A stretch of 64,000 nt of DNA from Dehalococcoidia bacterium. GTDB taxonomy: Bacteria > Chloroflexota > Dehalococcoidia > SpSt-223. Each line of letters starts with the position of its first letter. The first letter of the stretch is position 1. Positions 39,098 to 57,306 of the stretch are shown here, in pieces. Below the pieces are notes generated by a model. That model saw nothing but the letters and a program-made list of their open reading frames with translations, had not been told where the DNA came from and made no database searches. A program made the position numbers and the translations under genes. Location: assembly GCA_026003895.1 (NCBI GenBank), contig BPIC01000005.1, forward strand, positions 288,941-352,940. Reading direction: 5' to 3'.

Positions 39098-39277
39098 CCA
39101 CCCGCGCCTGACAGGGCGCCCGATCGAGCAACCAGAGGACGGGCTGAACTGTCGTCTTCAGCCCGATCGGTCTGATGGGAAAGGCATGGCTGGCAGACGA
39201 GGTCGTGACGGTGCCGTCGACCAACACAACCCGAGCCGCGTGCTGGCGCATTGGCGCTGAGCGGAGCGCAAACTGGA

Positions 39278-39301
39278 GGACCGGCAGCGTCACGCCGGTC
39301 C
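39278..39301 (-). terminator. candidate intrinsic terminator downstream of icd
   Basis: 8-bp GC stem GGACCGGC/GCCGGTCC with an 8-nt loop, 23 nt after the icd stop, followed on the minus strand by ...CCAGUUUG. Weak U-tract. Confidence 0.3.
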
Positions 39302-39323
39302 CCGGCGCCCCGTGCACTGGCGG

Positions 39324-40784: not shown

Positions 40785-40817
40785 CGTTCGTTCTCCTCTG
40801 TGAGATTGTGACGCCCA

Positions 40818-41876: not shown

Positions 41877-42901
41877 CAGCGCATCTCGATGACGGCCTTG
41901 AGCCCGTCGCCCGGATGTGCCGTCATCTGGAAGGCATCCAACGCTCGTTCCATGGGAAAACGGTGTGTGATCACCTCGGGGCCGCGCACCAGTCCGCTCC
42001 GCAGATACTCGAAGGCAATCCGTGTTTCGTGCGGCCCGGCGGAGTAGCTCGCGCCGATGGTGTGTTCCTGAAACCAGAGCCGGTGGGGCTCGATCGGCAA
42101 TTGGACGCCCGGGGCGCACGGCGCAAAGAGCATGAGATACCCACCCGGCTCAAGCAGTTCGAGGCCCGCTTGCGCTGGGCCAAGGCCAGAGGGGCCGACG
42201 AAGACAATGTCGGCAAGGCGGCCGTCGTTCGCAGCTGCCAATTGCTCGGCCGCCGGGCCGATCGAGGGATCAATAACCGCGTCTGCCCCATAGGATGGCA
42301 TTCGATTCCGACGGACCGCGATCGGGTCCGAGACGATGATTCGGCTCGCTCCAGCAAGCCGACTTAACTGGGTGAGGAAGATCCCGTTGACCCCAGCGCC
42401 CACGATCGCCACCCGGTCCCCCGGCCGGACGTTGGCGCGCGCGACCGCGCGAATTGCGCAGGCGACAGGTTCAATAAGGACCGCGGCCTCGGACGTCATG
42501 TCGTCCGGAAGCGGCAACACGTCAAGTTCCACGTTGGGCGCTGGAACCCGCACATATTCGGCCAGACCGCCGGGGTCCAGGCGGGTTTGTTTGAATCGCG
42601 GACAGGTTGACCAGTTCCCGCGGCGGCAGCGAGGGCATACCATGCATGGCACATGGTGATGCACAAAAACCCGCTGACCGACTTTCAGGCGTTCGACTCC
42701 CGGCCCGACCTCGACGATCTCACCGACAGGCTCGTGACCCGGCGTCAGTGGGGCGCGCGGCGTGAGATACCATTCCATCACGTCCGACCCGCAGACGCCG
42801 CACAGCTCCATTCTGACGATGATCTCACCCGGTCCCGGGGTCGGCTCTGGGACTTCGATCACGCTGATGTCGCTATTGCTTCGATACTGGACCGCTCGCA
42901 C
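41876..42901 (-). CDS. zinc-dependent alcohol/threonine/sorbitol dehydrogenase family (MDR)
   Basis: MRAVQY...GEIIVRMELCGVCGSDV, a second Zn site CxxCxxC and a GxGxxG motif. Confidence 0.85.
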   Translation of the reverse strand: MRAVQYRSNSDISVIEVPEPTPGPGEIIVRMELCGVCGSDVMEWYLTPRAPLTPGHEPVGEIVEVGPGVERLKVGQRVFVHHHVPCMVCPRCRRGNWSTCPRFKQTRLDPGGLAEYVRVPAPNVELDVLPLPDDMTSEAAVLIEPVACAIRAVARANVRPGDRVAIVGAGVNGIFLTQLSRLAGASRIIVSDPIAVRRNRMPSYGADAVIDPSIGPAAEQLAAANDGRLADIVFVGPSGLGPAQAGLELLEPGGYLMLFAPCAPGVQLPIEPHRLWFQEHTIGASYSAGPHETRIAFEYLRSGLVRGPEVITHRFPMERALDAFQMTAHPGDGLKAVIEMR

Positions 42902-42984
42902 AGCGTCCCCGGACGTGAAATCGGGGCGCTGGCTGCGCCCCGAGCGAGATTATACCGCCGACCGCCTCGGCATGCTGTCGGGCG

Positions 42985-44619
42985 TTATTGGATCCGGTAG
43001 GCGCTGTCCAGATTAATCTGGTTCTGCTGGTCCGTCGGGATGCCCTTGATTTTGGGCGAATGAACATGATAGGAGGCGCCGTTATACGTGAAGAGCAGCC
43101 ACAAGTCCTCTCGCTCAATCTGGGCAGCGCGGCGGTAGAGTTCCGCTCGACGGGCTGGGTCACGCTCGACAAGCGCCGCATCGAAGGTCTGATCCCAGAG
43201 CGGATTGCAATAGAAATACTGGTCCCGCGCGATGTTCGGCGGCCGGTTGCAACCCGTCGTCCCACGATAGGCGCTGAACCACCCATTACGGTCACCAGCG
43301 CCGGCTGAGACGATATCCCCTTTGGGTTGCCGGCCGCTCACCTTGTCACTGAAGACCGCGAGCTCAAGGCTATTGATCTCGATTTCGACACCGATCTCGC
43401 GCAGGTATCCCTGCACGGCGAGCGGTACTTCGGCTGGTTGCGCCGCCGGGGTAAAGTCCAGCCCACCTGTGAGCTTGAAACCATTTGGATACCCCGCTTC
43501 AGCGAGCAACTGGCGCGCTTTTGCGACGTCGTAGGGCCACGGCTGAAGTGCAGGATTCCAATATTGGCTGTCCGGGGTGCCACCTTGGCCAGTGGGTTTA
43601 TTGAACCCCTTGAAGAGTTGTTGGGTCATCGCCTCACGGTTGATGGCGTAGTTCAGTGCCTCTCGGACCCGCTTGTCGGCCAGTGGGCTGCCCTTCGCCT
43701 CCGCCACACCTTGTGGGATTTTCATTGACGCGTTCGTGTTGAGATAGGCGATCACAGTCATGCCGGCGGACCGGAGCTGGTCGGCCTGTTCGCCCGTAAA
43801 ATTGCGAAGCAGCGCAGCATCCAACTCACCCGTCCGGAGCCCGTTAATCACCTGGGCATTTTCGACGATGTTCCGGAAGATCAGCTCTCGGTTCTCAACT
43901 TTGCGGAACGCGTGCCGCTCAGACCGAACTCGGAAATGGGCGATTGATCCCGGCTGGAATTGCACGACCTCGTACGGTCCGGATCCCATTGGCTGCGATG
44001 CGTAGCCCGCATCACCTATCTCTTGATGCACCTTTTTTGACATCGCATAGACGAGAGGGCCGGCCGACGGAATGCTCAGGTCGACGGTTCGCGTGGTGAT
44101 CTGCAGTGTCGTTGGGTTGAGTGCTTGAACTCCGGAGACAGCCGTGATGAGCGAGCGAAGAATCCACCCTTGTTGTTTAAGCGCGAGATCAATGGTGTAG
44201 GCGAGATCTTCAGCCGTGACTGGGTCGCCGTTCCAGAAGCGAACGTCGTTGCGAAGGGTGAAGGTCCATACCGTCCCGTCGGGATTCAGCTCCCACGAAG
44301 TGGCGAGCCATGGCCGCACTTCGAAATTTGGTCCAAATGCCGTCAGTGAGTCATACAGCGGCGCATAAAACCACGGGTTCGAGGTAAAGCCAGCAGGAGA
44401 AAGCGTGTCGCTGAATCGGTTGATTCCGAAAGTGAGAACTTGGTTTTCGGCTCGCCGTTCGGTCGGGGTAGAAGCACCCGAGCTTGGCGCTGCGCTTGGT
44501 GCAGAAGGGGAACAGGCGCTCAGCGTGAGGAAGACGAAGCACAATGAAGCAAGGCGACGGATCATCCTCAGTGGCCTCCGTGACGACCGAACCGAACTTG
44601 ATAGCGGTACCCTAAACAA
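42985..44619 (-). CDS. ABC transporter substrate-binding protein, family 5 (SBP-A)
   Basis: Signal peptide plus a DppA/OppA-like fold. Paralogous to the SBP at 54204-55826. Confidence 0.85.
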   Translation of the reverse strand: MFRVPLSSSVRSSRRPLRMIRRLASLCFVFLTLSACSPSAPSAAPSSGASTPTERRAENQVLTFGINRFSDTLSPAGFTSNPWFYAPLYDSLTAFGPNFEVRPWLATSWELNPDGTVWTFTLRNDVRFWNGDPVTAEDLAYTIDLALKQQGWILRSLITAVSGVQALNPTTLQITTRTVDLSIPSAGPLVYAMSKKVHQEIGDAGYASQPMGSGPYEVVQFQPGSIAHFRVRSERHAFRKVENRELIFRNIVENAQVINGLRTGELDAALLRNFTGEQADQLRSAGMTVIAYLNTNASMKIPQGVAEAKGSPLADKRVREALNYAINREAMTQQLFKGFNKPTGQGGTPDSQYWNPALQPWPYDVAKARQLLAEAGYPNGFKLTGGLDFTPAAQPAEVPLAVQGYLREIGVEIEINSLELAVFSDKVSGRQPKGDIVSAGAGDRNGWFSAYRGTTGCNRPPNIARDQYFYCNPLWDQTFDAALVERDPARRAELYRRAAQIEREDLWLLFTYNGASYHVHSPKIKGIPTDQQNQINLDSAYRIQ

Positions 44620-44680
44620 ATGCTGCGGAGGAGTCCATATTTCCTCCGCAGCACGCTACACCTGACGTGGAGCGTCAGAA

Positions 44681-45620
44681 CTAGGTCGCGGTCTGAGGAG
44701 CCCGGCGTGGCTTCCGAGCCGTGACGAGCATGTTGGCGCCCGCCCGAACCGGCCGGGTGACGTCTTCGAGCCCGATGTCTTTGAGATATTGCTCGAAGTT
44801 TAGGTCGAGATAGCTGAGCATAAACGGCTCGCTGTTGCGCTTGACGGCGTTCTGCCGGCGAATCAAGTCGCCCTCGCTCTCCGCTGGTGGCCAGTCGAAC
44901 CACGTGATGACGTGGCCGGGCTTCGATAGGCGGACCATCTCGCCAATGAACGCCTTGGCGTGATAGTTCGGCATTTCGTGCAGACAGTAGCTTTCGTTGA
45001 CGGCGTCGAAGCTTTCGTCCGCGAAGTACCGCATGTCGCCGCCGTCCATGTGGTAGAAGAAAATGTTCTTGATGCCCAGCTGCTCGGCCTTGCGGCGCGC
45101 CCAGCGCAGCATCGAGGGGGAAAGGTCGACCCCGATCACCTCGGCATCTGGCCACAGTTCGGCCATGACGAACGTCGTCGTCCCGGTGCCGCATCCAACA
45201 TCGAGCGCCCGCTTGGGCTTCAGATCGCCGTAGGCTTTCTTCAGCCAAAACTTCACCGTTTCCGGCTCGGTAAAGTAGAACTTTGTCTTGGAACCCCAGT
45301 GGGTGATCCACGACGCGAACGCCGGATGCAGCGTGGCCGGCTGCGGGTAGGTATGGACCGGCTTCATGAAGTAATACGCAGGGTATTTTGCCGGCTCGGT
45401 CGCCCCCGGCGGCATGAGATCCGTCGCATCGAACGGGCCATCGAGCTTCTCGTAGGTTTCGAGCTCGATTCGCTTTTTCCATGCCGAAATCGTCGGGAAA
45501 TACTTCGACAACCAAAGACTGAAGTTCATCGGCGGGCCGGCGTACCCTGGGGCTCCCTCCGGCGGCCGGCCGATGACTTCAAGCGAACTGGGTCGGGTTG
45601 GCCTAGCTTTCGTCTGGGTC
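44681..45620 (-). CDS. class I SAM-dependent methyltransferase with ~100-aa N-terminal extension (MT-A)
   Basis: Motif I LDVGCGTGTTT, and FDAVNESYCLHEM. About 65-70% identical to MT-C (53142-54098). Start placed at a GTG near 45620. The ORF extends to 45856. Confidence 0.8.
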
Positions 45621-45632
45621 ACGGTGCTCCTC

Positions 45633-46709
45633 CTACTCCTTCCAACCCCACGTGATCCACGGTGTTGGGCTCCCACCGTTCTTCTTTCGCTCGCGGCTTG
45701 GCTCCTCCACCCGTGCAAATCCCGCCTCACGGCACATCGCGGCGAGATCGCGGAGCGCAGCCTGCCGCCAATACGGCTCACCGTTATGTTCAGTTTGCCA
45801 ATCCGACGTGAAGGCTCGGTACAATTCGTGCTCACGGTACGGCGGGGTGTCGGCAATCTGGAACAGCCCGCCCGGCTTCACGATCCGGTAGCCCTCGCGG
45901 ATGATCGCCATCGCTGCGTCGTCGGGGACCTCATGGAACAAAATGGTCGACGTGACGACATCGAAATAGTTATCCGGGAAGTCGGTCTGCTCGGCGGCCT
46001 GTTGGCTGAGGTGCAGCGCGATCCCTTGAGCCTCGGCTTGCTTATGGGCATATTTCAAAAGCGGGGCGGAGATGTCGATGCCATACACGTCGGCGTCCGG
46101 GAATCGTTCTTTGATCGGGTAGGTCGAATGGCCGACCCCGCAGCCGAGGTCGAGAATGCGCTCGTACCGGCCTTCGGGAATGGCAAGCGCGGCGCCGACC
46201 TTCAATTCGGATCGGGCGTTCCGCTCGCCGTGATAGACAACCTGACCGATTTCAAGGACGAACGGGATCAGTGGCTGGCGGTGTTGGCCGCCCGGCTGAA
46301 TGTGGTAGTCAATCTCGTAATAGGCCGGCGGTACGAGGTTCGGGTTCAAACGTAGCGAACCACGCGGATTCGGCACCGGCTCGTCGAGCCACGCGAGCAA
46401 CTCCTTTTCATGCGGGGTCACCGCCTCGAAAAGGCGGCTCCACATCAGCTCTTGAGTTTGCCGAGAGAGAAACTTCTCGGCTTTGTACTCGAACAAAGGC
46501 GAGACGATTTCAGCGACGTCAGCAAACGTCTGGGGCTCAGGTGCCCCGCTCGCCTTTCGCTCCTCAACGGTCTGCCGGTAATGCTTGGCGACCTTTCCGG
46601 CAAGCGCCTGCTGAGTAAACCCCTTGGCATTGCGGATGAAATCGAGGGTTGCTCGGTCGGGCTGGCCGAGCAAGACGCCGTCCTTTGCGATCGTCAACAT
46701 AGGCACCAC
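45633..46709 (-). CDS. class I SAM-dependent methyltransferase (MT-B)
   Basis: LDLGCGVGHSTY motif I, and FDVVTSTILFHEV. 358 aa. Confidence 0.8.
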   Translation of the reverse strand: MVPMLTIAKDGVLLGQPDRATLDFIRNAKGFTQQALAGKVAKHYRQTVEERKASGAPEPQTFADVAEIVSPLFEYKAEKFLSRQTQELMWSRLFEAVTPHEKELLAWLDEPVPNPRGSLRLNPNLVPPAYYEIDYHIQPGGQHRQPLIPFVLEIGQVVYHGERNARSELKVGAALAIPEGRYERILDLGCGVGHSTYPIKERFPDADVYGIDISAPLLKYAHKQAEAQGIALHLSQQAAEQTDFPDNYFDVVTSTILFHEVPDDAAMAIIREGYRIVKPGGLFQIADTPPYREHELYRAFTSDWQTEHNGEPYWRQAALRDLAAMCREAGFARVEEPSRERKKNGGSPTPWITWGWKE

Positions 46710-46786
46710 TTCTCCGATTGGCCCAGATCCATGGATCCGGTGTATTGTACGATACCTTCCCGCCAGTTCTGACAGCCTCGATCCAA

Positions 46787-48244
46787 TCAGACCACGACGC
46801 CTGGCCCACCTGCAGCGGCGAGCGCCGCCGCCGCCTTCGCGGCTTCGGTGCCCGAACGGATCGCATCAACCACCCCCCTTCCGTTGTAGGACGTGCCCGC
46901 TAGCACCAATCCCGGAATTGCGGCGGCGCGGCGCTCTGCCGCGGCAACCCGCTCGAGGTGCCCGAGGGTATAGCGGGGCAGCGCGGGTGACCAGCGGCGA
47001 CCGGCCACGAAGATCGGATCGGCCGAGATCCGGAGCACGTTCCGGATCTCCTCGAGGCCGAAGGCGATCAATTCGTCGTCACTCGAGTGTTCCACCACTT
47101 GGTCGTCGCTGAGAAAAGCGCGAAGCAGGGCATATCCCTCGGGAGCATGGCCCTCCCACCGAATGGAATCCCAGGTCATCGAGTTCACGGCGCCGCGCTC
47201 GCGACTGTGCTTGACGTACCCGGTCCCGGCGAGGATTTTCGGAGCATCTTCGGCACGGAAGGCAAAGGAAAAGGTGGCCATCGATCGGAACCGAACCCCA
47301 GCGAGCGCCTCCGCCAGCGGTGCATCCAGTTGACGGAGGCGCTCGGCTGCTTCGAAGGCCGGCGCGGTCACCACGACAACATCCGCAGAGAGGCGCTCGA
47401 ACCCGGCCGGCCCGCGTGTGACGACATCGAAGCCGCGGGGCGTTCGCGCAATCTCCTCGACAGCGACACCCGTCCGTAGCGTGACATGTGGAGCGTCGCT
47501 CAGCCGCGCGACCAAGCGTGTGATGATGACGTCCATCCCTTCGCGTGGTGCGACGAGGGTTGCATCGGCTTTGCCGAGTTCCTCCAACCGAGCCTTCTGC
47601 TTACGGGCGCCCACACTGACACTGCCGAACTGACGTTCGAAGGCCACGAGACCCGGGGCTGCTGCTGGCGCCGAGAGCGTGTCTCCTTCGCCCCCAGCAA
47701 TCCCCCCGAGCAGCGGCTCAAGGACGTTCCACCACGCCTCGTCGCCGAAGCGACGACGCAGAAATGCTCCGAGGGACTCTTCAGAACCGTCCTTGCGCGG
47801 CGGAAGAAACGGCTCAAGCATGGCCCGCAGGGCGCCAGACGGTGACAAGATGCCTTCCGCCACCAATGCGCCTGGCCGCAAGGGCAAGATGTCGGTGACC
47901 CCTTGGGTAATCGGACGGAGCTTCCCTTTGAAGAGGATGGAGCTGCCGCCGTGGACACGCTTTGGAGACTGCAGTTGGTCTGCGAGCCCGAGGTCGGCAC
48001 ACAGCTCGTAGCCTTCGGGCGCAGCGGCGACGAACCCCTCAGGCCCGGCCTCGATAATGAACCCCTCTCGCCGGATGGTGAAGAACTTGCCGCCGAGACG
48101 GTCGTCGCGCTCGATGACGGTGATCGTCGCTGCAACGCCGGTTTCGGAAAGCGAATCGATCAGCCGGAAGGCGGCCGTCAGGCCCGTGATACCTCCGCCG
48201 ACGATCACAATCTGGCGCGGGTCGGAGGCGAGAGGATCGGTCAC
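46787..48244 (-). CDS. FAD-dependent oxidoreductase of the protoporphyrinogen/coproporphyrinogen oxidase (HemY/CgoX) family
   Basis: N-terminal dinucleotide-binding motif IVIVGGGITGLTAAFRL and overall HemY-like layout. GTG start at 48244 preceded by AAGGAGA. Confidence 0.65.
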   Translation of the reverse strand: MTDPLASDPRQIVIVGGGITGLTAAFRLIDSLSETGVAATITVIERDDRLGGKFFTIRREGFIIEAGPEGFVAAAPEGYELCADLGLADQLQSPKRVHGGSSILFKGKLRPITQGVTDILPLRPGALVAEGILSPSGALRAMLEPFLPPRKDGSEESLGAFLRRRFGDEAWWNVLEPLLGGIAGGEGDTLSAPAAAPGLVAFERQFGSVSVGARKQKARLEELGKADATLVAPREGMDVIITRLVARLSDAPHVTLRTGVAVEEIARTPRGFDVVTRGPAGFERLSADVVVVTAPAFEAAERLRQLDAPLAEALAGVRFRSMATFSFAFRAEDAPKILAGTGYVKHSRERGAVNSMTWDSIRWEGHAPEGYALLRAFLSDDQVVEHSSDDELIAFGLEEIRNVLRISADPIFVAGRRWSPALPRYTLGHLERVAAAERRAAAIPGLVLAGTSYNGRGVVDAIRSGTEAAKAAAALAAAGGPGVVV

Positions 48245-48407
48245 GCGTGGTCTCCTTCGAGGGTGTCGCCGATTTCTACGGATTGATCGCGCCAATTCGC
48301 CGCGACTTCAAGGGCAGAATGGCCATGCTATTCGGACCATTTCCTTGCGCTTTGAGAGCACCGCTTGCGCCGGGAGCGGATCGAGGCATCCCGACGTGGC
48401 ACGGTGC

Positions 48408-49328
48408 CTAGAGCGGCAAGCGGGAGTCGAGCGCCTCTTGCAGTCCCTCGCCGAGCAAGTTGAACGACACCACCGTCAGGAAGATGAGCAGCCCGGGCAG
48501 CAAGGCAACATGCGGGGCGACAAAGAAAAACTGCCGTCCGGTGGCTAACATCGCTCCCCAGTCCGGCTGTGGCGCTTGAGTGCCGAGCCCGAGAAACGAA
48601 AGGCTGGCGGTGGCGATCAGCTTTGCGCCGACATCAAGTGTGCCCGCAACAATGATCAGTGGCAGGCAATTTGGCAGGAGGTGGCGGAACAGAATTCGGG
48701 GTGTGCTACTGCCGAGCGCTTCGGCGGCTTGGATGAATTCGCGCTCCCGCAGCGACAGCACGTGTCCCCGCACGAGCCGAGCGTAGAGCGGTATCCCGAC
48801 GATCGCGACGGCGACCATCGCATTGGTCAAGCCGGGACCAGCGGCGGCCACGATGGCAATGGCCAACAAGACCCCGGGAAATGCCATGACAATGTCGATC
48901 AGGTGGGTAGCCGCCGAGTCGACCCAACCTCGAAAGTACCCAGCGGTCAGTCCAAGCGCCACTCCCGGCACGAGCGACAACAGCGCCGCGCCGATGCCGG
49001 CGAGCAGCGACGTGCGACCGCCCCAGACCAGCCGGCTCAGCAAATCGCGGCCGAGCTCATCACTTCCAAGCAGGTAGCCGGGCCAGCCGACGGGACGCAG
49101 CCGATTGACAGTTTGCAACTCCATTGGGGTGGGGTTCGCCAGAGGCAGCACGGGCGCCGCGAGGGCGAGCGCTACGATGGTCAGCAGAACCACCGTGCCG
49201 GCGACTGCCAGCGGGTGCCGGCGGAATCGCCGCCAGGCTTGGGCACGGGGCGAGACCGAAGCGGACGACGCTTGGGTGCCCCGCGTGCTGAGCGCGAGCG
49301 GTGCGACAGTCGGCTTAGCGTCCGCCAT
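48408..49328 (-). CDS. ABC transporter permease (DppC/OppC-like)
   Basis: 6 TM helices and an EAA-like loop. Overlaps the upstream permease gene. Confidence 0.85.
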   Translation of the reverse strand: MADAKPTVAPLALSTRGTQASSASVSPRAQAWRRFRRHPLAVAGTVVLLTIVALALAAPVLPLANPTPMELQTVNRLRPVGWPGYLLGSDELGRDLLSRLVWGGRTSLLAGIGAALLSLVPGVALGLTAGYFRGWVDSAATHLIDIVMAFPGVLLAIAIVAAAGPGLTNAMVAVAIVGIPLYARLVRGHVLSLREREFIQAAEALGSSTPRILFRHLLPNCLPLIIVAGTLDVGAKLIATASLSFLGLGTQAPQPDWGAMLATGRQFFFVAPHVALLPGLLIFLTVVSFNLLGEGLQEALDSRLPL

Positions 49329-50271
49329 AGCGTATCCGCGGATCGATTCGCGTATAAAGCACGTCGACGAACAGATTGATGATCACAAAGACAAAGGCAG
49401 TAAAGACGATACCCCCTTGGACGAGAGGATAGTCGCGACTGTTGATGCCATTGACGATCAAGAGCCCAAGGCCGGGCCAGCCGAACACATATTCAACGAG
49501 GACGGCCCCGCCGAGCAGGTAACCTGCCTGAGCACCAACGATCGTGACGACGGGAATCAACGCATTCTTCAGGGCGTGGCCCCACAACACCGCGTGTCCC
49601 GCCAGCCCTTTAGCGCGTGCCGCACGGATATAGTCCTGCTGCAAGACCTCAACCATACTCATCCTCGTGACCCGTGCGATAAACGCGAGAGACGGTAGGG
49701 CGAGGGTGACCGCCGGCAGGATGAGGAAGGGCACGATGTCGAATGGCCCTTGCCGAACTGGTGGTGACATGCCTTGCGGCGGCAACCAGCGCAATTGAAC
49801 CGCAAAGATGACGATCAGGACCATCCCGGTCCAAAACACCGGAAGCCCGACACCACACAACGCGAGGAACATGACCAACCGATCGACGAGCGATCGGGCC
49901 CGCGTGGCCGCGAGAATTCCGGCGACAATCCCCCCAGCCGCGGCGAGGGCGAGGCTCGCGGCGCCTAGGATGGCCGTGTTGCCAAAGCGGTCGAGCACCT
50001 CGGCGAGCACCGGACGCCGCAGAAAGATCGACTCGCCAAAGTCCCCGCGGACGAGCCGGCCAAGCCAGCGGACGTATTGGACGACGAGCGGATCGTCCAG
50101 CCCGTATTCTGCCCGGATCGCTCGGATCACGTCGTCTGATGCGTTCGGTCCGGCGAGCAGAGCTGCTGGATCCCCGGGGACGAACCGCATCACCGCGAAG
50201 ACGATGGTGGCAACACCGACGGCGATGGGGACGGTTGCGAGGAGCCGCCGGAGCAGAAACGCGCTGAGCAT
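49315..50271 (-). CDS. ABC transporter permease (DppB/OppB-like)
   Basis: 318 aa with an OppB/DppB-like topology and conserved loop. Confidence 0.85.
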   Translation of the reverse strand: MLSAFLLRRLLATVPIAVGVATIVFAVMRFVPGDPAALLAGPNASDDVIRAIRAEYGLDDPLVVQYVRWLGRLVRGDFGESIFLRRPVLAEVLDRFGNTAILGAASLALAAAGGIVAGILAATRARSLVDRLVMFLALCGVGLPVFWTGMVLIVIFAVQLRWLPPQGMSPPVRQGPFDIVPFLILPAVTLALPSLAFIARVTRMSMVEVLQQDYIRAARAKGLAGHAVLWGHALKNALIPVVTIVGAQAGYLLGGAVLVEYVFGWPGLGLLIVNGINSRDYPLVQGGIVFTAFVFVIINLFVDVLYTRIDPRIRYGGR

Positions 50272-50280
50272 GTTACGCCG

Positions 50281-51897
50281 CTACGCGAGGTAGAGGAGGT
50301 TCCAATCGACCTCGACGTTGTCTCGCATCACGAAGCCATTGACCTCCGCAGCGTGATACCACATCGCGATTTCATGATCGACGAAGACCCACGGCATGTC
50401 GTTCATGAGAATGCGTTGTGCTTCGTGGCACGCATTTCGCCGCACGGTCGGCGTACTCTCCCGCCGAACGGTGCTGGCAAGCTCATCGAACTTCTCATTC
50501 CGGTAAAACGCTGCGTTTAACCCCTGCGGCGGGAAGTTGATGGAGTTGAACAAGCTGTTCAAGTAATTGTCTGGATCGAAGGTAACGGACGAGATCCCGC
50601 GTGCACTCATCTGGAAGTCGCCAGCGTTCCAGCGCTGCACATACGCCGCAAACTCTTGGACGTCGAGCGTGACTCGTATACCGACGGCAGCAAGCTTGCC
50701 TTGAATGAATTCGGCCATCGGCACAGGCTGTTGCATCCCGGTTCCACCTGACGGAATGAGGAAGCGCACGTCGAGCGTGTCAACTCCGGCTTCTCGCAGG
50801 AGCTGGCGAGCGCGGTCGGGCTGGTTATCGTTTGCGGGAAGGTCCCGCGCCACCCACTCCCCAAATGCCGGGGAGAACGGACCTCGCGCGGGCTGGCCGG
50901 TTCCCCGCAGCACGTCCCGGGTGAGCGCCGTCCGGTCAAGCGCGAGGCTGATCGCTTGCCGAACGCGCTGGTCAGTAAAGGGTTGGAAGCGCTGGCTCAG
51001 TTGGATCGCCCAATGCTGCCGACTGACGCGCTGTTGGACACGAAGCCGGCTGTCACCACGAACGATGTCGACCGAGTCTGGGGGCAAATCGACCGTGAAA
51101 TTGATCTGGCCCGTTTGCAACGCAAGCAGGCGCGATTGGGCATCGGGGATGGGGCGAACGATCAACTGATCGGCGTATGCCGTCTGCCCCCAATATTCAG
51201 GGTTCCGTTCAAGCGTCAGTTGCTGTCCTTTTTGCCACGAACTGAATCGGAACGGACCGGTGCCGACGGGCCGGTCGGCAACGCCCTTTCCCAACTCGCG
51301 CAGCGCTTTCGGGCTGATCATGTAACTGGGGTTGGTCGTGAGATAGTTCATCAACGGCGCATAGCGCTGCTTGAGATTGAGGCGAATGGTGTACTCGTCG
51401 ACCACATCCACGCTGGCGATCGGCGTGAGGAACAACCGGTAGAACAGCCAGTTGCCATCCTTGTTGTTTGGATGGTCGGGGTTGATCTGACGGTCGAGGT
51501 TGAACTTGGCAGCCTCGGCGTTGAACGGCGTGCCGTCGTGGAACTTGACGCCACGCCGGAGCGACAACGTCCAGCTCATGCCGTCACTTGCCTGCTCCCA
51601 GCGTTCGGCAAGCGCTGGCAAGATCTCGGTCTTATCCGGCGATTCGCGAACCAGTGGGTCATAGATCGCATATGCGACGCGACGGGTGTAGTTGTCCGAG
51701 ACGGCGTGAGCGTCGAGGGTCAGTGGATCGATCGGGCTCCCGTAGACGATCGCACCACCTCTGCGGGGACCCGCCGTCGTCTGCCCAGTGGAACCGGCTG
51801 GCTGAGCCGCTGGCGCACCACCACATGCCGCGAGAAGGCCGGAACTCGCCGCTGCCGCTGAAGCCGCGAGGAAGGTACGACGCGAAATCGTTTCCAT
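50281..51897 (-). CDS. ABC transporter substrate-binding protein, family 5
   Basis: Signal/Tat-like N-terminus (RRTFLAASAAAASSGLLAACGG) and a DppA-like fold. Confidence 0.85.
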   Translation of the reverse strand: METISRRTFLAASAAAASSGLLAACGGAPAAQPAGSTGQTTAGPRRGGAIVYGSPIDPLTLDAHAVSDNYTRRVAYAIYDPLVRESPDKTEILPALAERWEQASDGMSWTLSLRRGVKFHDGTPFNAEAAKFNLDRQINPDHPNNKDGNWLFYRLFLTPIASVDVVDEYTIRLNLKQRYAPLMNYLTTNPSYMISPKALRELGKGVADRPVGTGPFRFSSWQKGQQLTLERNPEYWGQTAYADQLIVRPIPDAQSRLLALQTGQINFTVDLPPDSVDIVRGDSRLRVQQRVSRQHWAIQLSQRFQPFTDQRVRQAISLALDRTALTRDVLRGTGQPARGPFSPAFGEWVARDLPANDNQPDRARQLLREAGVDTLDVRFLIPSGGTGMQQPVPMAEFIQGKLAAVGIRVTLDVQEFAAYVQRWNAGDFQMSARGISSVTFDPDNYLNSLFNSINFPPQGLNAAFYRNEKFDELASTVRRESTPTVRRNACHEAQRILMNDMPWVFVDHEIAMWYHAAEVNGFVMRDNVEVDWNLLYLA

Positions 51898-51995
51898 CCC
51901 TCACTCCCGATCAACGTTGAGTGTGGCAGATGGTGCACCACTCCCGGTGGTTTGTCAAATATGCGGAATTTCCGAGCCGACGATCTGCCGAGGGG

Positions 51996-53073
51996 TTAGG
52001 GTGCCCTCAAGGGGGCTCGGATGGGAGCGAGCCCCGTCGACTGCCCGCGGTGCACGGCGTCAATCACCTCTTGGCAGCGGAGCGCGTCGAGGAGATTGGG
52101 GTGCTCTGGGGTGCCCGTCTCGATGGCGTTGATTAACTTGTGTACAAGCAGCCCGAAGCGTGGGACGGCCGAACGGGCCGCCATTTCCGGGAACACCGGG
52201 TCCGGGATGTCAATTGGCTGGAGGTCCCGGTCGTGTGGCCCGGCGACACGTATCTTGAGGTCATTATCCACAACGATCGAACCAGCGCTCCCGTAAATTT
52301 CGAGTTGGAACCCGGTCCCGGCGCGGTTCCCAAACCCGAGCTGTATGGTGACGATTGCACCGTTCTCAAGCGTGCCGAGCACCGCAAACCCGTCGTCGGC
52401 CGTTGCCTTGGTGAGTTGACCCTGCTCGTCAAGAACATCTGGGTTCCACGTGCGCAATTGGCCGGTGGCCGTCGCCCACTCACCGAACCAATATCGGACG
52501 AGGTCGATGTAGTGACTCCCCATCGCGCCGAGATACCCTCCACCGAGCTCGGCGTCGTTCAGCCACGTTCGGGGACGCGGCGGCATTCCCGCCGGCCAGC
52601 CCGCCCACTGCTCGATCGAGATGTGCCGCACCTCGCCGACAAATCCCTCGTCAACAAGGCGCTTGATGTGCATCGTGTGGGGAAAGAAGCGCATCGTGAA
52701 GGCCGAGATGTGGGCGACCCGGTTTCGTTCCGCAGCGTCAAGCATTTCCTGGGCTTGGCTCGCGTTCACCCGCCGCCGGCTTTTCGCAGAGGACGTGTTT
52801 GCCGGCCTCGGCGGCCGCCACGGTCATCGGATGGTGCAAATAGACTGGCGCCCCAATGTACACAATGTCGAGCTCGGGCAGCGCGATCATCTCACGGTAG
52901 TCGTCGAACGCAAGCGGTGCACCAAACTGCTCGGCTGTAGACTTCGCGCGCTCAAGCCTGGCGCTGCACACGGCGTACAGCTCGACATCAGGATAGCTGG
53001 CGAACGTGGGGAGCGGACTCTTCGCCGCCCAAGCGGTGCCGATCGCCCCAACCTTGTAGCGCTTGCTGGCCAT
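51996..53073 (-). pseudogene. Gfo/Idh/MocA family oxidoreductase interrupted by a frameshift
   Basis: The N-terminal Rossmann part (52738-53073: KVGAIGTAWAAK...HVLCEKP) and the C-terminal part (51996-52769: NASQAQEMLDAAERNRVAH...) overlap in different frames around 52740-52770. Either a real frameshift or a sequencing indel. Confidence 0.6.
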
Positions 53074-53141
53074 CGCTCCTCCTCATGAAACAACGCCGGG
53101 AGAAGACTCCTCCCGGCGTCGAAGATAGGTCCTTGGGGTCG

Positions 53142-54098
53142 TCAGGACGATGCCGCGGCAGCCGGAACCGATGCGTCCTTGCGAGCGGGCTTTCGAGCGA
53201 CAACGAGCATATTCGCCCCGGCGCGCACGGGTCGGTGCACGTCTTCGAGACCCAGCTCAACGAGGTACTGTTCCAGTCTCAGGTCGAGATACTGCAGCAT
53301 GAATGGCTCAGAGCCCCGTTTCGCGATCTCCTCGCGGCGGGCGAGATCTCCCGGGGTCTCGGCTGGTGGCCAGTCAAACCACGTAATCAGGTGACCCGGC
53401 TTTGAGAGACGAATCATCTCCTTGACAACGGCCCGGCTGTGATACGTCGGCATCTCATGCAGACAGTAGCTCTCGTTGACGACGTCAAAGGACTCATCGG
53501 GATAGAACGAGCAGTCTCCTGCATCCATGTGATAGAAGCGGATGTTCTTGACGCCGCGCTCCTCGGCCAACTTCCGGGCGTAGCGAAGGTTCGAGGGAGA
53601 GAGGTCAATTCCGATAACTTCGCACTCGGGCCAGAGTTCGGCCATGACGAAAGTGGTCGCGCCGATGCCACAGGCGAGGTCGATCGCTCGTTCCGGCTTG
53701 ATGTCGCCGTAGACCTTCTGCAGCCAGAATTTGATCGTCTCTGGCTTCGTGAAGTAGAACGTCGTCCGCTTCTGGAACTCACCGTGATACGGCCCAAACG
53801 CCGGATCCAAGCCACCCGGTTTCGGGAACGTGTGAACCGGCTTCATGAAAAAGTACGCCGGGTATTTCGCCGGTTGGGTGGCGCCGGGCGGCATCAGGTC
53901 CGTTGCGTCGAACGGCCCATCCATTTGTTCGAGCATACGGAACTTGATCTTCTGCTTCACCTTGTGGAGGGCAGGCAGATACTTCGAGATCCACAGCTCG
54001 AGGGTCATCGGCGGACCGGCGTACTGCGGGGTCCCGGGTGGCGCCGACCCTATGACCGCGGTCTTTTCTTGCAGAGTTGGCTTGGCCGTTGTCGTCAT
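53142..54098 (-). CDS. class I SAM-dependent methyltransferase with N-terminal extension (MT-C, paralogue of MT-A)
   Basis: LACGIGATTFVMAELWPECEVIGIDLSP, and FDVVNESYCLHEM. Start placed at MTTTAKPT. Confidence 0.8.
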   Translation of the reverse strand: MTTTAKPTLQEKTAVIGSAPPGTPQYAGPPMTLELWISKYLPALHKVKQKIKFRMLEQMDGPFDATDLMPPGATQPAKYPAYFFMKPVHTFPKPGGLDPAFGPYHGEFQKRTTFYFTKPETIKFWLQKVYGDIKPERAIDLACGIGATTFVMAELWPECEVIGIDLSPSNLRYARKLAEERGVKNIRFYHMDAGDCSFYPDESFDVVNESYCLHEMPTYHSRAVVKEMIRLSKPGHLITWFDWPPAETPGDLARREEIAKRGSEPFMLQYLDLRLEQYLVELGLEDVHRPVRAGANMLVVARKPARKDASVPAAAASS

Positions 54099-54203
54099 GG
54101 TGCTGACCTCCCACGAGTTCGTGAACATTGTACGACTTGTTGAAATGAAAGGGAAGGCCCACGCCAGAATCGGCGCGGGCCATCAGACCGGGACGACCGT
54201 CCG

Positions 54204-55826
54204 CTACTTGATCTTGTAGGCGCTATCGAAGTTGTAGATGACGAAGTTGACCGGCTTCCAGCCCTTCACCTTCGGGGACGTCACGTGGAAGGTCGGTTGG
54301 ATGAGCAGATAGAGCATCGGCACATCCTCCTTCCAAATGCGGTTCGCTTGGAGGAAGAGCTGGCGGCGCTTCGCCGGGTCGGGTTCTGTCACCGCCTGCG
54401 CCATCACCCTGTCCCATTCTGGGTTGCAGTACCACTGCCCGGTGGGAATCGGCTTGCCGCACCCCCAGAAGGACCGAATGCCGCTCGCGAACCCGGTGCT
54501 GTCGGTGTTGCCCTGCGCCCACATGTCAGGGATGAGGCCGCCCTGACCCCGGACCTTTGCAAGAATGACGGACCATTCCTGCGAATGGATGTCAAACTCG
54601 ACGCCGACTTCCTTCAGGTAACCCTGAATTGCGAGCAATGGCTCGACCGGTGACTGGGCTGGTGCGTTGTCGATCCCATACGGCAGCTTGAATCCGTTGG
54701 GATAGCCCGCCTCCGCCAAGAGGCGCTTCGCGGTGGCTGGGTCGTATGGGATGACCGTGTTCGAAGGATCCCAATATGGACTGGACGGGATGGAATACTG
54801 CTGGGGCGATGGCTTTGCGTAACCCTTGAACAGGTTATCGGCCATCGCCTGCTTGTTCACGGCGTAGTTGAGCGCGAGTCGGACGCGCTTATCCTTCAAT
54901 GGGGTATCGCGCTGTTCGTAGGCGACTTGCGGGAACGTAATCGACCAGTTCGTCGACTCGTCCGCGATGATCGTCATATCCATGCGCTTGAGCTGATCGA
55001 TCTGCTCTGCGGTGAAACTCGTAAAGGTCACAATGTCGAAGTCGCCGCTTCGCAGGCCGTTGATCTTCTGAGAGTTTTCGATCAGCGCCTTGTAGTACAA
55101 CTCGTCCGCGACTGGCGTCCGAAACGCGTGCTTCACCGGCCGCTTCTTATAGCGGATCATGTCGCTCGGCACGAATTCAACGAGTTCGTAGGGACCGCTT
55201 CCCATTGGCTTTTGGACAAACCCGTCGAATCCCACGCGCTCGTAGTAGTGCTTTGGCAGGACGTAGGCATAGGAGGTTCCGGCAGCGACACTGGCGTCTG
55301 GCACCGAGAGTTCGACCTCGACCGTCGTCGGGTTGATCGCGGTTGCCTTGACGACCGAGTTGAACAACGAGACCTTGGCTGGCCACCGTTGCTCGACGTA
55401 CAGGTTGAGGGTGAACGCGACATCGTCGGCGGTCAGCTTTGCGCCATCGGGCCAGTTCATGTCGTCGCGGACCGTGAACGTCCACTTCTTGCCGTCAGGT
55501 GATAGGTCCCATTTGGTGACCACCGCCGGCTTGACTTCGAAATTGTCGCCGAACATGACCAGCGAGTCATACATCGGCGAGTAGTACCAATAGCCGGAAC
55601 TGCCAGCGGCGGGCGTCAGGTTCGCGACGAGGCTGCCAAGGACGATGTTCAGCTTTTGTTCTTCTGCTCGCTGCTCACCGGCGGGTGTTGTGCCAGTAGT
55701 CGAGCCGGTCGTCGCTGGCGCCGGAGTGCACGCCGAAAGCACAAGAACCGCGAGGATGCTGAGGCGCGTGAAGAACGATCGCAACGGACCCCCCAATGTG
55801 ACGCATGGTCTGCCGTGCAGTCTCAT
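54204..55826 (-). CDS. ABC transporter substrate-binding lipoprotein, family 5 (SBP-C, paralogue of SBP-A)
   Basis: Lipobox LSAC after the signal peptide. Blocks shared with SBP-A: KPMGSGPYELVEF, AINPTT, WTFT. Confidence 0.85.
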   Translation of the reverse strand: MRLHGRPCVTLGGPLRSFFTRLSILAVLVLSACTPAPATTGSTTGTTPAGEQRAEEQKLNIVLGSLVANLTPAAGSSGYWYYSPMYDSLVMFGDNFEVKPAVVTKWDLSPDGKKWTFTVRDDMNWPDGAKLTADDVAFTLNLYVEQRWPAKVSLFNSVVKATAINPTTVEVELSVPDASVAAGTSYAYVLPKHYYERVGFDGFVQKPMGSGPYELVEFVPSDMIRYKKRPVKHAFRTPVADELYYKALIENSQKINGLRSGDFDIVTFTSFTAEQIDQLKRMDMTIIADESTNWSITFPQVAYEQRDTPLKDKRVRLALNYAVNKQAMADNLFKGYAKPSPQQYSIPSSPYWDPSNTVIPYDPATAKRLLAEAGYPNGFKLPYGIDNAPAQSPVEPLLAIQGYLKEVGVEFDIHSQEWSVILAKVRGQGGLIPDMWAQGNTDSTGFASGIRSFWGCGKPIPTGQWYCNPEWDRVMAQAVTEPDPAKRRQLFLQANRIWKEDVPMLYLLIQPTFHVTSPKVKGWKPVNFVIYNFDSAYKIK

Positions 55827-55932
55827 CGACCCCTTCGATGAATCGGCAGTCTATCTATCCGGGATGGGGACGTCAAGATTTAACGCGGCGCACTGTATAC
55901 TCATACGCAGGACAAGCATCCGGAGGTGTCCG

Positions 55933-56301
55933 ATGGCCGTTGCCGTCCCTGCCGTCCGTGTCCATGATCAGCCGTCCACGCTCCGCGAGGGCGAGCGCGT
56001 TCGCCTCTTGATGGTGGTCTTCCCCGAGGCAGCCGAAGAGGATGTGCGGGCGCTGCTCGACCAAGCCGGCGCACCCGGCTGGACCGAGGTTCGCAAGCTC
56101 GTTGGCCGCGGCGAGTCCGGTCTGCGGCTCGGCGACCGGATCTGGCCGGGCTACAATTCCGCCTTCCTGTGCGCAGTCCCGGCCGATGTCGCTGACCAAA
56201 TTGTCGCCGCACTGCGCGACTACCTCGCGGCTCATAGCTCGCCGCGTGGTTCGGCGTTCGCAATGCGACTCTTCTCGCTTCCCTGCGAAGTGCTGATTTG
56301 A
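55933..56301 (+). CDS. hypothetical protein (small alpha/beta protein, possibly PII/CutA-like fold)
   Basis: ATG with GGAGGTG RBS. 122 aa. No confident family assignment. Confidence 0.4.
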   Translation: MAVAVPAVRVHDQPSTLREGERVRLLMVVFPEAAEEDVRALLDQAGAPGWTEVRKLVGRGESGLRLGDRIWPGYNSAFLCAVPADVADQIVAALRDYLAAHSSPRGSAFAMRLFSLPCEVLI

Positions 56302-56358
56302 AGCACCATACAGAAATTGCGAAATCCCGCCGCTAGACGGTGATCGGCTCCCGCGGGC

Positions 56359-57306
56359 TCATTCGGCGAACTCTTGGACGACGACCAGCCCGCCAGCGGC
56401 AGTCGCAACGCCGATACCAGCGCGTTTGTAAATCGGCGAAAGCAGATTGGCCCGGTGTGACGGGCTCGCCATCAGCACGTCGTGGGCGCTGCGAGCGGTG
56501 GGCGCAAAGGCGAGGTTCTCGCCGGTCGCCACAAAGCGGATGCCGGCCCGCTGCAGGCGCTCCGCGGGGGTCGAGCCATCGGGGCCAGTGTGCGACAGGG
56601 CGCCGGTCGCATAGAGAGTCTGGGCGTAGGCGCGGGCCACGTCGCGAAGTCGAGAGTCGATGCTGACCGGAGCGAGTCCGTTTTTCTGCCGCTCGGTGTT
56701 CAGCAGCGCGAGAAGTTCATCCTCAGCCCGCGTGTCGATGGTGCTGCGGGCCGCGGTCGGGATCGGGAGCCTGCTGTCGGTTGAGCCCACCGGCACGGGA
56801 AGGCCCATCCGGCCAACCAGCCCGGCCGCGTAGGGCTCGATCTGCTTGATCCACGGGAGCACGAGCTTGCCAGACTGCGACGCTTCGATCGCCGCCCGCG
56901 CCGGCGGAAAGATCGGCCAAATGCCGAGCGCAATCAGCACCAGCGAAACGAGCAGCAACCCTTTCAGCGCGCCGGGGACGATACCCGCTGCGATGTCGAT
57001 CCCCCGCAAGAAAAACGTTGGGGTTACGATCCGGCGGGCGATGTATACCCAACGGATGATGATGAGCCCGTAAACGAGCTGAAAGAAGATAACGAGCCCA
57101 AGGAAGGTGAACGCATTGACCGCCCACGACGCCATGCCGAGCGGGTCACCCACCCAGCCGGCGAGGGGCTCGAACAGGACTGCCGCAAGCCAGATGGAGA
57201 TGGCGAGGCCGACAAGGTCGCACAGCCCGAGAATGAAGCCCCGCCGCAGACCGGTCAGCGCTCCAAGCGAGAGGGGCACCAGCAACTGGAGGTCGACAGG
57301 GGTCAC
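56359..57306 (-). CDS. CvpA-family membrane protein fused to a C-terminal CAP (SCP/PR-1-like) domain
   Basis: N-terminal 4-TM CvpA-like segment. C-terminal ELLALLNTERQKNGL...HTGPDGSTPAERL...GENLAF, typical of CAP/YkwD domains. Confidence 0.65.
   Translation of the reverse strand: MTPVDLQLLVPLSLGALTGLRRGFILGLCDLVGLAISIWLAAVLFEPLAGWVGDPLGMASWAVNAFTFLGLVIFFQLVYGLIIIRWVYIARRIVTPTFFLRGIDIAAGIVPGALKGLLLVSLVLIALGIWPIFPPARAAIEASQSGKLVLPWIKQIEPYAAGLVGRMGLPVPVGSTDSRLPIPTAARSTIDTRAEDELLALLNTERQKNGLAPVSIDSRLRDVARAYAQTLYATGALSHTGPDGSTPAERLQRAGIRFVATGENLAFAPTARSAHDVLMASPSHRANLLSPIYKRAGIGVATAAGGLVVVQEFAE

Follow-up and report, generated by a model that had tools for sequence, protein, structure and literature searches.

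An uncharacterised methyltransferase family in a Dehalococcoidia gene array that may be a mosaic of separately transcribed units

Results

A 64,000-nucleotide stretch of contig BPIC01000005.1 from a Dehalococcoidia bacterium (GCA_026003895.1), hereafter the window, contains an array of genes for three S-adenosylmethionine (SAM)-dependent methyltransferases (MT_A, MT_B and MT_C), three family-5 solute-binding proteins (SBP5; SBP_A, SBP_B and SBP_C), DppB- and DppC-type permeases, a HemY-like oxidase, a Gfo/Idh/MocA oxidoreductase (GFO) and two zinc-dependent alcohol dehydrogenases (ADH1 and ADH2). A preliminary description of this DNA had likened the array to a small-molecule cluster, in which a duplicated binding-protein and methyltransferase cassette flanks the remaining genes. 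The open reading frame (ORF) list and the Pfam scan of the window recover all the genes named between the MT_A/SBP_A and MT_C/SBP_C pairs (MT_B, hemY, DppB/C, SBP_B and GFO). The observation itself is real; the cluster reading overstates the coherence of the array. We place at about even probability the reading that the array is a mosaic of at least six separately transcribed units, and not a single pathway cluster. The three methyltransferases in it belong to one uncharacterised class I family, in which MT_B is the widespread type and MT_A and MT_C represent a rare offshoot that has expanded into paralogues. Coordinates of the genes and control elements are given in Table 1. The products of hemY, SBP_B, MT_C and SBP_C are identical to GIW08230.1, GIW08233.1, GIW08236.1 and GIW08237.1 of the metagenome-assembled genome KatS3mg060, to whose GIW08228.1 and GIW08229.1 MT_A and MT_B correspond, and a Logan assembly of run DRR290133 contains the same organism.

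MT_A, MT_B and MT_C belong to one class I methyltransferase family

The Pfam models Methyltransf_25, Methyltransf_11 and Methyltransf_31 matched MT_A, MT_B and MT_C with E-values of 1e-15 to 1e-23, and the hallmarks of class I (Rossmann) SAM methyltransferases are present, with motif I (xLDxGCGxG), an acidic residue following strand 2 and a predicted core fold. Two alignments were used for comparison, A1 with 11 members of the MT_A/C family and A3 for the MT_B type; motif I and Asp175 are invariant in A1. MT_A and MT_C are 66% identical over 304 residues, in agreement with the earlier estimate of about 65–70%. The unusual N-terminal extension reported for both also held up, as its motifs GPFDATDLMPPGA and YPAYYFMKPVHT are invariant or nearly so in the 11 family members. 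Because the Pfam domains begin only at residue ~137–146 in MT_A/C and at ~183 in MT_B (the matches cover residues ~146–248 only in MT_C and 183–297 only in MT_B), the N-terminal extensions are real.

Profile and fold searches against the PDB found no counterpart of the MT_A/C extension or of the MT_B N-terminal region, and the extension has none in Pfam. The A1 profile matched PDB entries over the SAM-binding core only, with plant phosphoethanolamine N-methyltransferase (PMT) as the best match (E 1e-20). AlphaFold models were obtained for MT_C (pLDDT 83.7) and MT_B (pLDDT 87.1), with predicted alpha/beta cores above 90 and, in MT_B, an N-terminal region of ~170 amino acids folded as a long helical hairpin. 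Both models matched the PDB over the Rossmann core only (query-normalised TM-score ≤0.5), and all fold matches were class I methyltransferases.

Comparison of A1 with A3 by hhalign gave a probability of 99.95 and an E-value of 6e-38, with the alignment starting at MT_C residue 77, and MT_A/C and MT_B are therefore members of one family. The segments common to both types are P-x-Y(Y/F)...H..P(G), (C/F)LHE.P and EP(F/Y), and the part specific to MT_A/C is the first ~76 residues with the motif GPxDxxDxxPPG. The MT_A/C type gave 15 matches in an index of 5.8 billion clusters, and its extension was covered by ~30 of the 150 top-ranked representatives in a set of 1.84 billion. It occurs in two of 185,579 species genomes, HOT.Cluster.3 (five or six loci) and STL-CHL33 (two loci), and a scan of JGI metagenomes for further loci returned two short contigs only. 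The product deposited as counterpart of MT_A (GIW08228.1) shares one 90% cluster with the MT_A orthologue of locus L001 (L numbers denote the loci compared). MT_B homologues with E ≤1e-5, on the other hand, number 451 and come from Chloroflexota, Alphaproteobacteria, Actinobacteria, Acidobacteria and other groups. The longer homologues (430–725 amino acids) carry no informative additional Pfam domain, one of them showing a weak, sub-threshold alpha/beta-hydrolase (chlorophyllase-like) tail.

Three sequences of 468–629 amino acids (P0143, P0147 and P0150) have low-complexity, signal-like N-termini and an eukaryotic-looking composition, and they retain the GPxDxxD..PG and H.PGGY motifs. The family may, on the basis of these sequences, reach algae or protists. 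Between the window and HOT.Cluster.3, identity amounts to 85–90% for the methyltransferases, 85% for an NADP-isocitrate dehydrogenase (IDH) downstream of the array, 67% for hemY and 61% for the C-terminal domain of GFO; the three methyltransferases appear to be under strong purifying selection. The methyltransferases of dimethylsulfoniopropionate (DMSP) synthesis, DsyG and DSYE, were considered and rejected, the methyltransferase domain of DsyG being at residues 76–175 in a different architecture.

The JGI annotation names the methyltransferases UbiE, which would make them housekeeping quinone C-methyltransferases of the UbiE/MenG type. PF01209 (Ubie_methyltran) does score above the Pfam threshold for all three proteins, at 48–55 bits. 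However, this match corresponds to the SAM-binding half of the protein (profile positions ~38–160 of 233), and the NCBIfam models reached 42–58 bits against cutoffs of 158–420, with TIGR01934 at 49–58 against 158 and NF001243, NF001244 and TIGR02752 far below. Nor is a distribution over two species genomes, with up to five or six paralogues per genome, the pattern of a core enzyme. We rate this reading as highly improbable, and the failed equivalog models together with the distribution appear to exclude it effectively; UbiE/COQ5 membership, which the preliminary description had named as an assignment that would speak against its reading, fails on the same NCBIfam equivalogs. Its statement that the N-extended family could not be placed is upheld, since all named NCBIfam models, including MenG/UbiE, BioC, ArsM, BchM and CpaM, fell far below cutoff for MT_A/C. 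The Pfam and profile check that it had proposed led to the same picture of a recognisable SAM-binding core joined to an extension of its own.

Terminator-like and promoter-like elements within the array

Hairpins with U-rich tails were found directly after SBP_C, MT_C, MT_A and SBP_A, with free energies of −20 to −25 kcal/mol and z-scores of −4.4 to −5.5 relative to shuffled sequences. They are kept, with sequence changes, in L001 and L026; those after MT_C and MT_A also have a counterpart in L008, where the strong hairpin that follows MT_A is a different one. In addition to the sigma-70-like promoter candidate upstream of SBP_C, promoter-like elements are present upstream of SBP_B (TTGACA...) and ADH1 (TATAAT). 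The nonamer TCGTACAAT, a −10-like element, occurs in exactly two copies in the 64 kb (0.06 expected), ~30–35 nucleotides (nt) upstream of MT_C and MT_B, and GTACAAT is found at the same position upstream of MT_C, MT_B and the gene MT_B2 in four other genomes. A small palindrome or hairpin after the MT_B copy keeps its pairing between genomes (GGATCC..GGATCC versus GGGCC..GGCCC) and may be an element of the 5′ untranslated region or an operator.

The sequence upstream of hemY, GGATGGCC...GGCCATTC.GCCCTTGA, is conserved whether DppC or GFO is the preceding gene (window 48245–48407; L026 9844–10000; L008 8389–8481), and this would fit a hemY promoter/operator region that predates the insertion of SBP_B-DppBC described below. 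An Rfam scan of 36000–60000 (E ≤0.1) revealed no riboswitch or other RNA control element; its sole match was a sub-threshold ALIL pseudoknot inside hemY (47020–47122, minus strand; 23.5 bits against 50, E 0.021), most likely a chance match.

The genes from SBP_C to ADH2 all lie on the minus strand, as stated in the preliminary description, but the close spacing it reported conceals a number of gaps. Five gaps measure ~75–165 nt (SBP_C-MT_C, GFO-SBP_B, DppC-hemY, MT_A-SBP_A and SBP_A-ADH1), further gaps measure 68 and 77 nt, and strong hairpins occupy four of the gaps. Tight packing is found between SBP_B and DppB (9 nt), between DppB and DppC (14-nt overlap) and between the MT_B stop and the MT_A start, where the 10-nt spacer is GAGGAGCACC and GAGGAG precedes MT_A. 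The MT_A start codon is a GTG at 45622, replacing the earlier range of 44681–45620, which is not a multiple of three. For SBP_A, previously given as 42985–44619, the start is more likely at 44565 (MIRRLASL...), because the terminator-like hairpin occupies ~44620–44654. G+C content is 60–66% throughout the window, and the region shows no compositional break.

Because of the hairpins after SBP_C, MT_C, MT_A and SBP_A and the separate promoter-like elements, we conclude that the array is probably not one operon and would comprise at least six units, with MT_C and MT_B-MT_A as separate, similarly controlled units. Four conserved terminator-like hairpins, taken as sequence patterns, several promoter-like elements and a gene content that varies among sister genomes all speak against a single operon or biosynthetic cluster.

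The conserved core comprises six genes

The full layout of the window was found at L001, a JGI metagenome contig of ~78% nucleotide identity, and at L026 (GCA_025054935.1). HOT.Cluster.3 (GCA_023512725.1) and KatS3mg061 (GCA_026003915.1) contain SBP_C, MT_C, GFO, hemY, MT_B, MT_A, TerC and purine genes, and in STL-CHL33, where the locus lies at a contig end, hemY-MT_B-MT_A-TerC is all that can be seen. The adjacency of MT_B and MT_A is kept in L001, L008, L014 and L026. Because SBP_B-DppB-DppC and SBP_A are missing from the locus in the sister genomes HOT.Cluster.3 and KatS3mg061 (SBP_B is absent in L008, L009 and L013), the conserved core consists of the six genes SBP_C / MT_C / GFO / hemY / MT_B-MT_A. 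In the lineage of the window, insertion of SBP_B-DppB-DppC has separated GFO from the hemY promoter region. SBP_A and the ADH-ADH-IDH genes adjoin the core only in this lineage. In KatS3mg061 the SBP_A orthologue (83% identical) lies at another locus, beside a true hemE (TIGR01464, 382 bits against 303) and together with a succinate-semialdehyde-dehydrogenase-like gene, a second SBP_A/C-type gene and an MT_B paralogue.

The synteny comparison called for in the preliminary description thus gave a divided answer, with the core order kept in a few close relatives and the importer, SBP_A and the alcohol dehydrogenases elsewhere or absent in sister genomes. The SBP5/DppBC genes that had been taken for a dedicated importer are an insertion specific to this lineage and do not occur at the locus in HOT.Cluster.3 and KatS3mg061. 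The duplicated cassette also dissolves, as SBP_C is upstream of MT_C but SBP_A is downstream of MT_A, and the sister-genome orthologue of SBP_A lies at a different locus.

Distant MT_B homologues were also examined in an alphaproteobacterium, Dactylosporangium and other Chloroflexota; their neighbourhoods vary and include no conserved partner. In Dactylosporangium sp. (GCA_040654515.1; L029, 8001–14549) an MT_B homologue, two SDRs, an SBP5 resembling SBP_B (28%) and an FAD oxidoreductase are found on one strand. In the alphaproteobacterium (L020, 1–16601) the MT_B homologue adjoins a TauD-family dioxygenase and two DgcA-like flavoproteins, and an Amdase-family gene is present in both L029 and L020. 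The TauD, DgcA-like and Amdase neighbours might hint at amine or betaine metabolism, a hint too thin to use.

Solute-binding proteins, permeases and ATPases

SBP_B and SBP_C were assigned to family 5 (cluster C) by PF00496, and SBP_A by its identity to SBP_C and by NCBIfam binding-protein models. SBP_A and SBP_C share 43% identity over 493 residues, which agrees with the paralogy noted earlier. The translations contain lipobox-like sequences, LSAC in SBP_A and SBP_C and LAAC in SBP_B, and all three proteins scored below the cutoff of every NCBIfam equivalog. The PDB matches of SBP_B are 5u4o (E 9e-67), YliB/GsiB (3.5e-58) and HbpA (1.7e-56). SBP_A and SBP_C have diverged further; in the PDB they match best (E ~1e-34) a mix of peptide, GsiB (glutathione), AccA (agrocinopine) and AapF binders. 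In a crude alignment, the dipeptide anchors Arg355 and Asp408 of DppA are not conserved in SBP_A, SBP_B or SBP_C. The nearest NCBIfam models are Opp2B, GsiC and NikB for DppB and GsiD, Opp4C and NikC for DppC, all below cutoff.

A DppD/F-type ATPase was found neither in the 64-kb window nor at any related locus. The sole ABC ATPase of the window (~33936–34991) is 28% identical to DppF and adjoins an ORF that reads by eye as a putative ABC-2-type permease, so the earlier statement that ABC ATPase genes are lacking stands for the DppD/F type and not for ABC ATPases as a whole. A complete Dpp/Opp-type importer, with two ATPases beside the binding protein and permeases, is not encoded here. SBP_C is an orphan with no adjoining permease. 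A fourth family-5 binding protein, at 11510–13138 on the minus strand, is likewise an orphan with no permease beside it and is 33% identical to SBP_A.

One of the proposals made for the array was a staphylopine-like (Cnt) opine metallophore system with its own importer. The family-5 binding proteins and DppBC-type permeases do resemble CntABC, and the CntA and CntC models gave sub-threshold matches. However, these amounted to 78–163 bits against 800 for CntA (NF047575) and 200 against 440 for CntC, the array ORFs include no CntL nicotianamine-synthase-like, CntM opine dehydrogenase or racemase gene, and the importer module is not kept in sister genomes. The probability that we leave to this reading is close to nil, and gene content appears to exclude it effectively. 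More generally, Pfam and NCBIfam revealed among the array ORFs no signature genes of the opine-metallophore, modified-peptide or tetrapyrrole-derivative clusters to which the array had been likened.

The binding proteins found near methyltransferase paralogues are mostly of the SBP_A/C subtype, 42–45% identical to one another and 22–24% to SBP_B. In KatS3mg061 (L010) a gene of this subtype is directly upstream of MT_B2. In HOT.Cluster.3 (L017) another faces, in convergent orientation, an SBP5 whose start lies 4 nt downstream of a further methyltransferase gene, 4 kb from an MT_A/C-like gene, and in the genome of the window itself (L022) a third lies 5 kb from the MT_B-like KatS3mg060_1599. The exception in subtype is the SBP5 directly adjoining the methyltransferase in L017 (31%). 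These loci suggest that the pairing of SBP_A/C-type proteins with the methyltransferase family is recurrent. The SBP5 pair of L017 has as neighbour an ORF (13121–14713) whose terminase RNaseH-like domain (PF17289) points to a possible prophage remnant.

HemY and the porphyrin reading

The hemY product scored 217.5 bits with TIGR00562 (cutoff 97.85) and has an FAD/NAD_binding_8 N-terminus. All seven PDB matches are PPOX/HemY enzymes, with no amine oxidase among them; Bacillus subtilis HemY (3i6d) is the best at E 2e-66 and aligns over the full length (residues 26–487 against 5–462). Myxococcus xanthus PPOX (1e-45) comes next, ahead of the enzymes from plants and human. HemY proteins outside the clade are only ~30–40% identical to it, a level unremarkable for the family. 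Because the TIGR00562 cutoff is passed and the solved relatives are HemY/PPOX only, with B. subtilis HemY first, the protein is read as an ordinary HemY/CgoX-type enzyme, apparently closest to B. subtilis CgoX, which settles in favour of PPOX/CgoX the choice against an amine oxidase that had been raised before. In B. subtilis, HemY acts as coproporphyrinogen oxidase in the coproporphyrin-dependent route to heme. No hemE, hemH or hemQ was found adjoining hemY of the window in the ORF list and Pfam scan, and hemE was seen in the sister genome KatS3mg061. A second hemY paralogue was not among the listed homologues from sister genomes, a list that is not able to exclude one.

The position of hemY raises the possibility of porphyrin tailoring, in which the propionates of coproporphyrin III made by CgoX would be esterified by MT_B, MT_A and MT_C and the family-5 binding proteins would handle porphyrin or heme traffic or uptake. 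Coproporphyrin tetramethyl ester is a mycobacterial natural product whose methyltransferase is unknown (PMC10774309). All genomes of the clade have the order hemY-MT_B-MT_A, in which hemY and MT_B are not separated by a terminator, and the true hemE of KatS3mg061 is flanked by the SBP_A orthologue and by an SBP5-MT_B2 pair. Additionally, on several contigs from two species a corrinoid adenosyltransferase gene is found at a distance of three or four genes from an MT_A/C paralogue, and SBP_B is similar to HbpA and DppA, two proteins that carry a heme-binding label in their depositions. However, homology to BchM/ChlM goes no further than the generic domain (35.6 bits, cutoff 158.9), heme genes do not adjoin the MT_B homologues of other genomes, the hemE adjacency is confined to one genome and MT_B has its own promoter-like element. 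We consider porphyrin tailoring very unlikely; its products would be hydrophobic methylated coproporphyrins like those accumulating in dormant mycobacteria.

GFO, the alcohol dehydrogenases and a neighbouring gene

Relative to L001 and L008, GFO carries one extra G near 52768 (site 52760–52775, minus strand) that splits it into ORFs of 111 and 257 amino acids, with the Pfam N- and C-terminal domains both present on separate ORFs and frames. The gene is intact (357–358 amino acids) in L001, L008 and L026. The independent Logan assembly of DRR290133 has the same split, as do the proteins deposited at NCBI. Many genes of the KatS3mg series are split, and because the sister assembly KatS3mg061 carries split genes (pyruvate kinase, UvrD and IDH) that are intact in HOT.Cluster.3, an assembly indel would be as likely as a true pseudogene. 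The nearest NCBIfam models of GFO, levoglucosan and inositol dehydrogenases, are below cutoff. The alcohol dehydrogenase pair travels with IDH (NF006673, 605 bits against a cutoff of 509), which lies beyond it, and not with the methyltransferases; in L008 and L009 the ADH-ADH-IDH group is inverted and ~6 kb away.

These results also bear on the reading of the array as one uptake-and-tailoring pathway, in which a solute taken up by the SBP5/DppBC proteins would be methylated by the three enzymes and then undergo redox conversion by the HemY-like enzyme, GFO and the alcohol dehydrogenases. The common strand, the stretches of tight spacing, the conservation of the core in the clade and the recurring adjacency of binding-protein and methyltransferase genes are in line with such a pathway, as is the single-strand arrangement in Dactylosporangium. 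However, DppBC, SBP_B, SBP_A and the alcohol dehydrogenases are not at the locus in sister genomes, GFO is frameshifted here, the FAD enzyme is a bona fide HemY, several terminator-like hairpins intervene, an ATPase is lacking and the SBP5 in Dactylosporangium does not belong to the A/C type. We regard the single pathway as quite improbable.

Divergent from SBP_C is a gene for a P-II-like protein, listed here as a neighbour of the array. It is present in HOT.Cluster.3, KatS3mg061 and the DRR290133 contig and absent from GCA_025054935.1.

Table 1. Genes and candidate control elements of the array, in coordinates of the window.
Feature	Position	Strand	Remarks
P-II-like gene, divergent from SBP_C	55933–56301	+	122 aa; weak PF00543 match; neighbour
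Sigma-70-like promoter candidate upstream of SBP_C	55848–55876	−	TTGACG-17-TAGACT, consensus match; sole match in 39000–56500
SBP_C, family-5 solute-binding lipoprotein	54204–55826	−	PF00496 E 6.5e-65; GIW08237.1
Terminator-like hairpin after SBP_C	54156–54181	−	11 pairs (9 G-C), −25 kcal/mol, z −5.5; kept in L001, L026
TCGTACAAT, −10-like element upstream of MT_C	54127–54135	−	GTACAAT at same place in L001, L026
MT_C, class I SAM methyltransferase with N-terminal extension	53142–54098	−	318 aa; GIW08236.1 (KatS3mg060_3041)
Terminator-like hairpin after MT_C	53091–53121	−	−25.1 kcal/mol, z −5.4; kept with sequence changes in L001, L026, L008
GFO, Gfo/Idh/MocA oxidoreductase	51996–53073	−	two ORFs, 52738–53073 and 51996–52769
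SBP_B, Dpp/Gsi/HbpA/Nik-like family-5 binding lipoprotein	50281–51897	−	Tat-like signal; PF00496 E 5e-94; GIW08233.1
DppB-type permease	49315–50271	−	PF00528 and PF19300
DppC-type permease	48408–49328	−	PF00528 and PF12911
hemY, HemY (CgoX-type) family oxidase	46787–48244	−	485 aa; GIW08230.1
TCGTACAAT, −10-like element upstream of MT_B	46744–46752	−	kept in L001, L026, L014; upstream of MT_B2 in L010
MT_B, class I SAM methyltransferase, widespread type	45633–46709	−	corresponds to GIW08229.1 (KatS3mg060_3034)
MT_A, paralogue of MT_C	44681–45622	−	313 aa, length as GIW08228.1 (KatS3mg060_3033)
Terminator-like hairpin after MT_A	44620–44654	−	13 pairs, −24.6 kcal/mol, z −5.2, then UUUGUUU; kept in L001, L026
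SBP_A, family-5 binding lipoprotein, SBP_C paralogue	42985–44565	−	43% identity to SBP_C
ADH1, Zn-dependent alcohol dehydrogenase	41876–42901	−	NCBIfam threonine-dehydrogenase/IolM-like models, below cutoff
ADH2, Zn-dependent alcohol dehydrogenase	40818–41879	−	4-nt overlap with ADH1

Discussion

If the array is a mosaic of separate units, hemY would have its normal role in heme synthesis, and MT_C and the MT_B-MT_A bicistron would be co-regulated through their common promoter-like element. The methyltransferases would catalyse N- or O-methylation of a soluble small metabolite, with an active site probably built from the conserved histidine of LHE(M/V)P, the upstream P-x-Y...H...P segment and the EP(F/Y) segment. 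N- or O-methylation appears most likely because the nearest solved relatives are PMT enzymes and because a histidine is conserved after strand 4. The metabolite could plausibly be a solute that SBP_A/C-type lipoproteins bind and pass to a Dpp-type permease, the genes for its ATPases lying outside this region. Such coupling between binding proteins and methyltransferases within the mosaic is a tentative suggestion, which we would sooner doubt than accept on the gene neighbourhoods described here.

Several observations weigh against this explanation. The promoter and terminator calls are sequence patterns only, and no terminator was found between hemY and MT_B, so that read-through along hemY-MT_B-MT_A is possible. 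The window contains four SBP5 genes, a density at which some adjacency is expected by chance, and family paralogues at L004–L007, L011, L015, L016 and L019 have no SBP5 within 10 kb. The genomes bearing the core are all close relatives (61–95% protein identity over shared genes), and their common order may be inheritance. The SBP5 density, the paralogues without SBP5 neighbours and the close kinship of these genomes, together with the varying contexts of distant MT_B homologues and the hairpins that part the units, favour the view that the neighbourhood is kept by descent, the methyltransferases, hemY, GFO and binding proteins being functionally unrelated and the SBP adjacency a matter of chance. 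However, the neighbouring binding proteins are mostly of one subtype, three or four direct adjacencies occur in about eight methyltransferase loci where SBP5 density gives a rough expectation below one, and the core order has outlasted rearrangement of the flanking genes. Descent without function is, in our estimate, unlikely, though it deserves more weight than the other alternatives.

Should the coupling within the mosaic be true, Chloroflexota would possess sets of paralogous binding-protein and methyltransferase pairs that capture and methylate solutes, an arrangement not described before. It would also provide the first functional handle on the MT_B-type family, with its hundreds of members in Chloroflexota, Proteobacteria, Actinobacteria and apparently algae. 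Independently of the coupling, the analysis describes an N-terminal module of a class I methyltransferase that is rare and has no match in Pfam or the PDB, and it corrects public labels, since the methyltransferases are listed as UbiE or hypothetical protein and hemY most likely codes for a CgoX-type enzyme. An apparent gene cluster of a hot-spring Chloroflexota genome may, in addition, be understood as a mosaic of separate units. A search of the literature on the KatS3mg assemblies returned nothing relevant.

Among known systems, UbiE, MenG and COQ5 share with the methyltransferases a generic partial match to PF01209 and the public annotation, and differ from them in architecture and phylogenetic distribution. 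The nearest solved relatives of both the MT_A/C and MT_B types are the phosphoethanolamine N-methyltransferases (PDB 5wp5 and 3uj6; E ~1e-19 to 1e-20), which have the same class I Rossmann core and a histidine in an (I/C)LH(E) segment after strand 4. The histidine of the LHE segment aligns with that of the ILH segment of PMT, which we take to be the catalytic histidine. The match spans ~115 core residues, however, and neither the N-terminal 140–180 residues nor the C-terminal EP(F/Y) segment has a PMT counterpart.

The B. subtilis enzyme 3i6d provides the closest comparison for hemY, which differs in its setting, as the gene here has a permease or GFO gene on one side and two methyltransferase genes on the other. 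The staphylopine (Cnt) loci resemble the array in having a family-5 binding protein and DppBC-like permeases beside tailoring-type enzymes, and differ in the defining biosynthetic genes, which are absent here. Finally, SBP_B, DppB and DppC match the families of E. coli DppABCDF, GsiABCD and NikABCDE over their full length and are tightly packed in the order SBP_B-DppB-DppC. In contrast to these E. coli systems, the array has no DppD/F ATPase genes, its proteins score below the equivalog cutoffs and two extra orphan binding proteins flank it.

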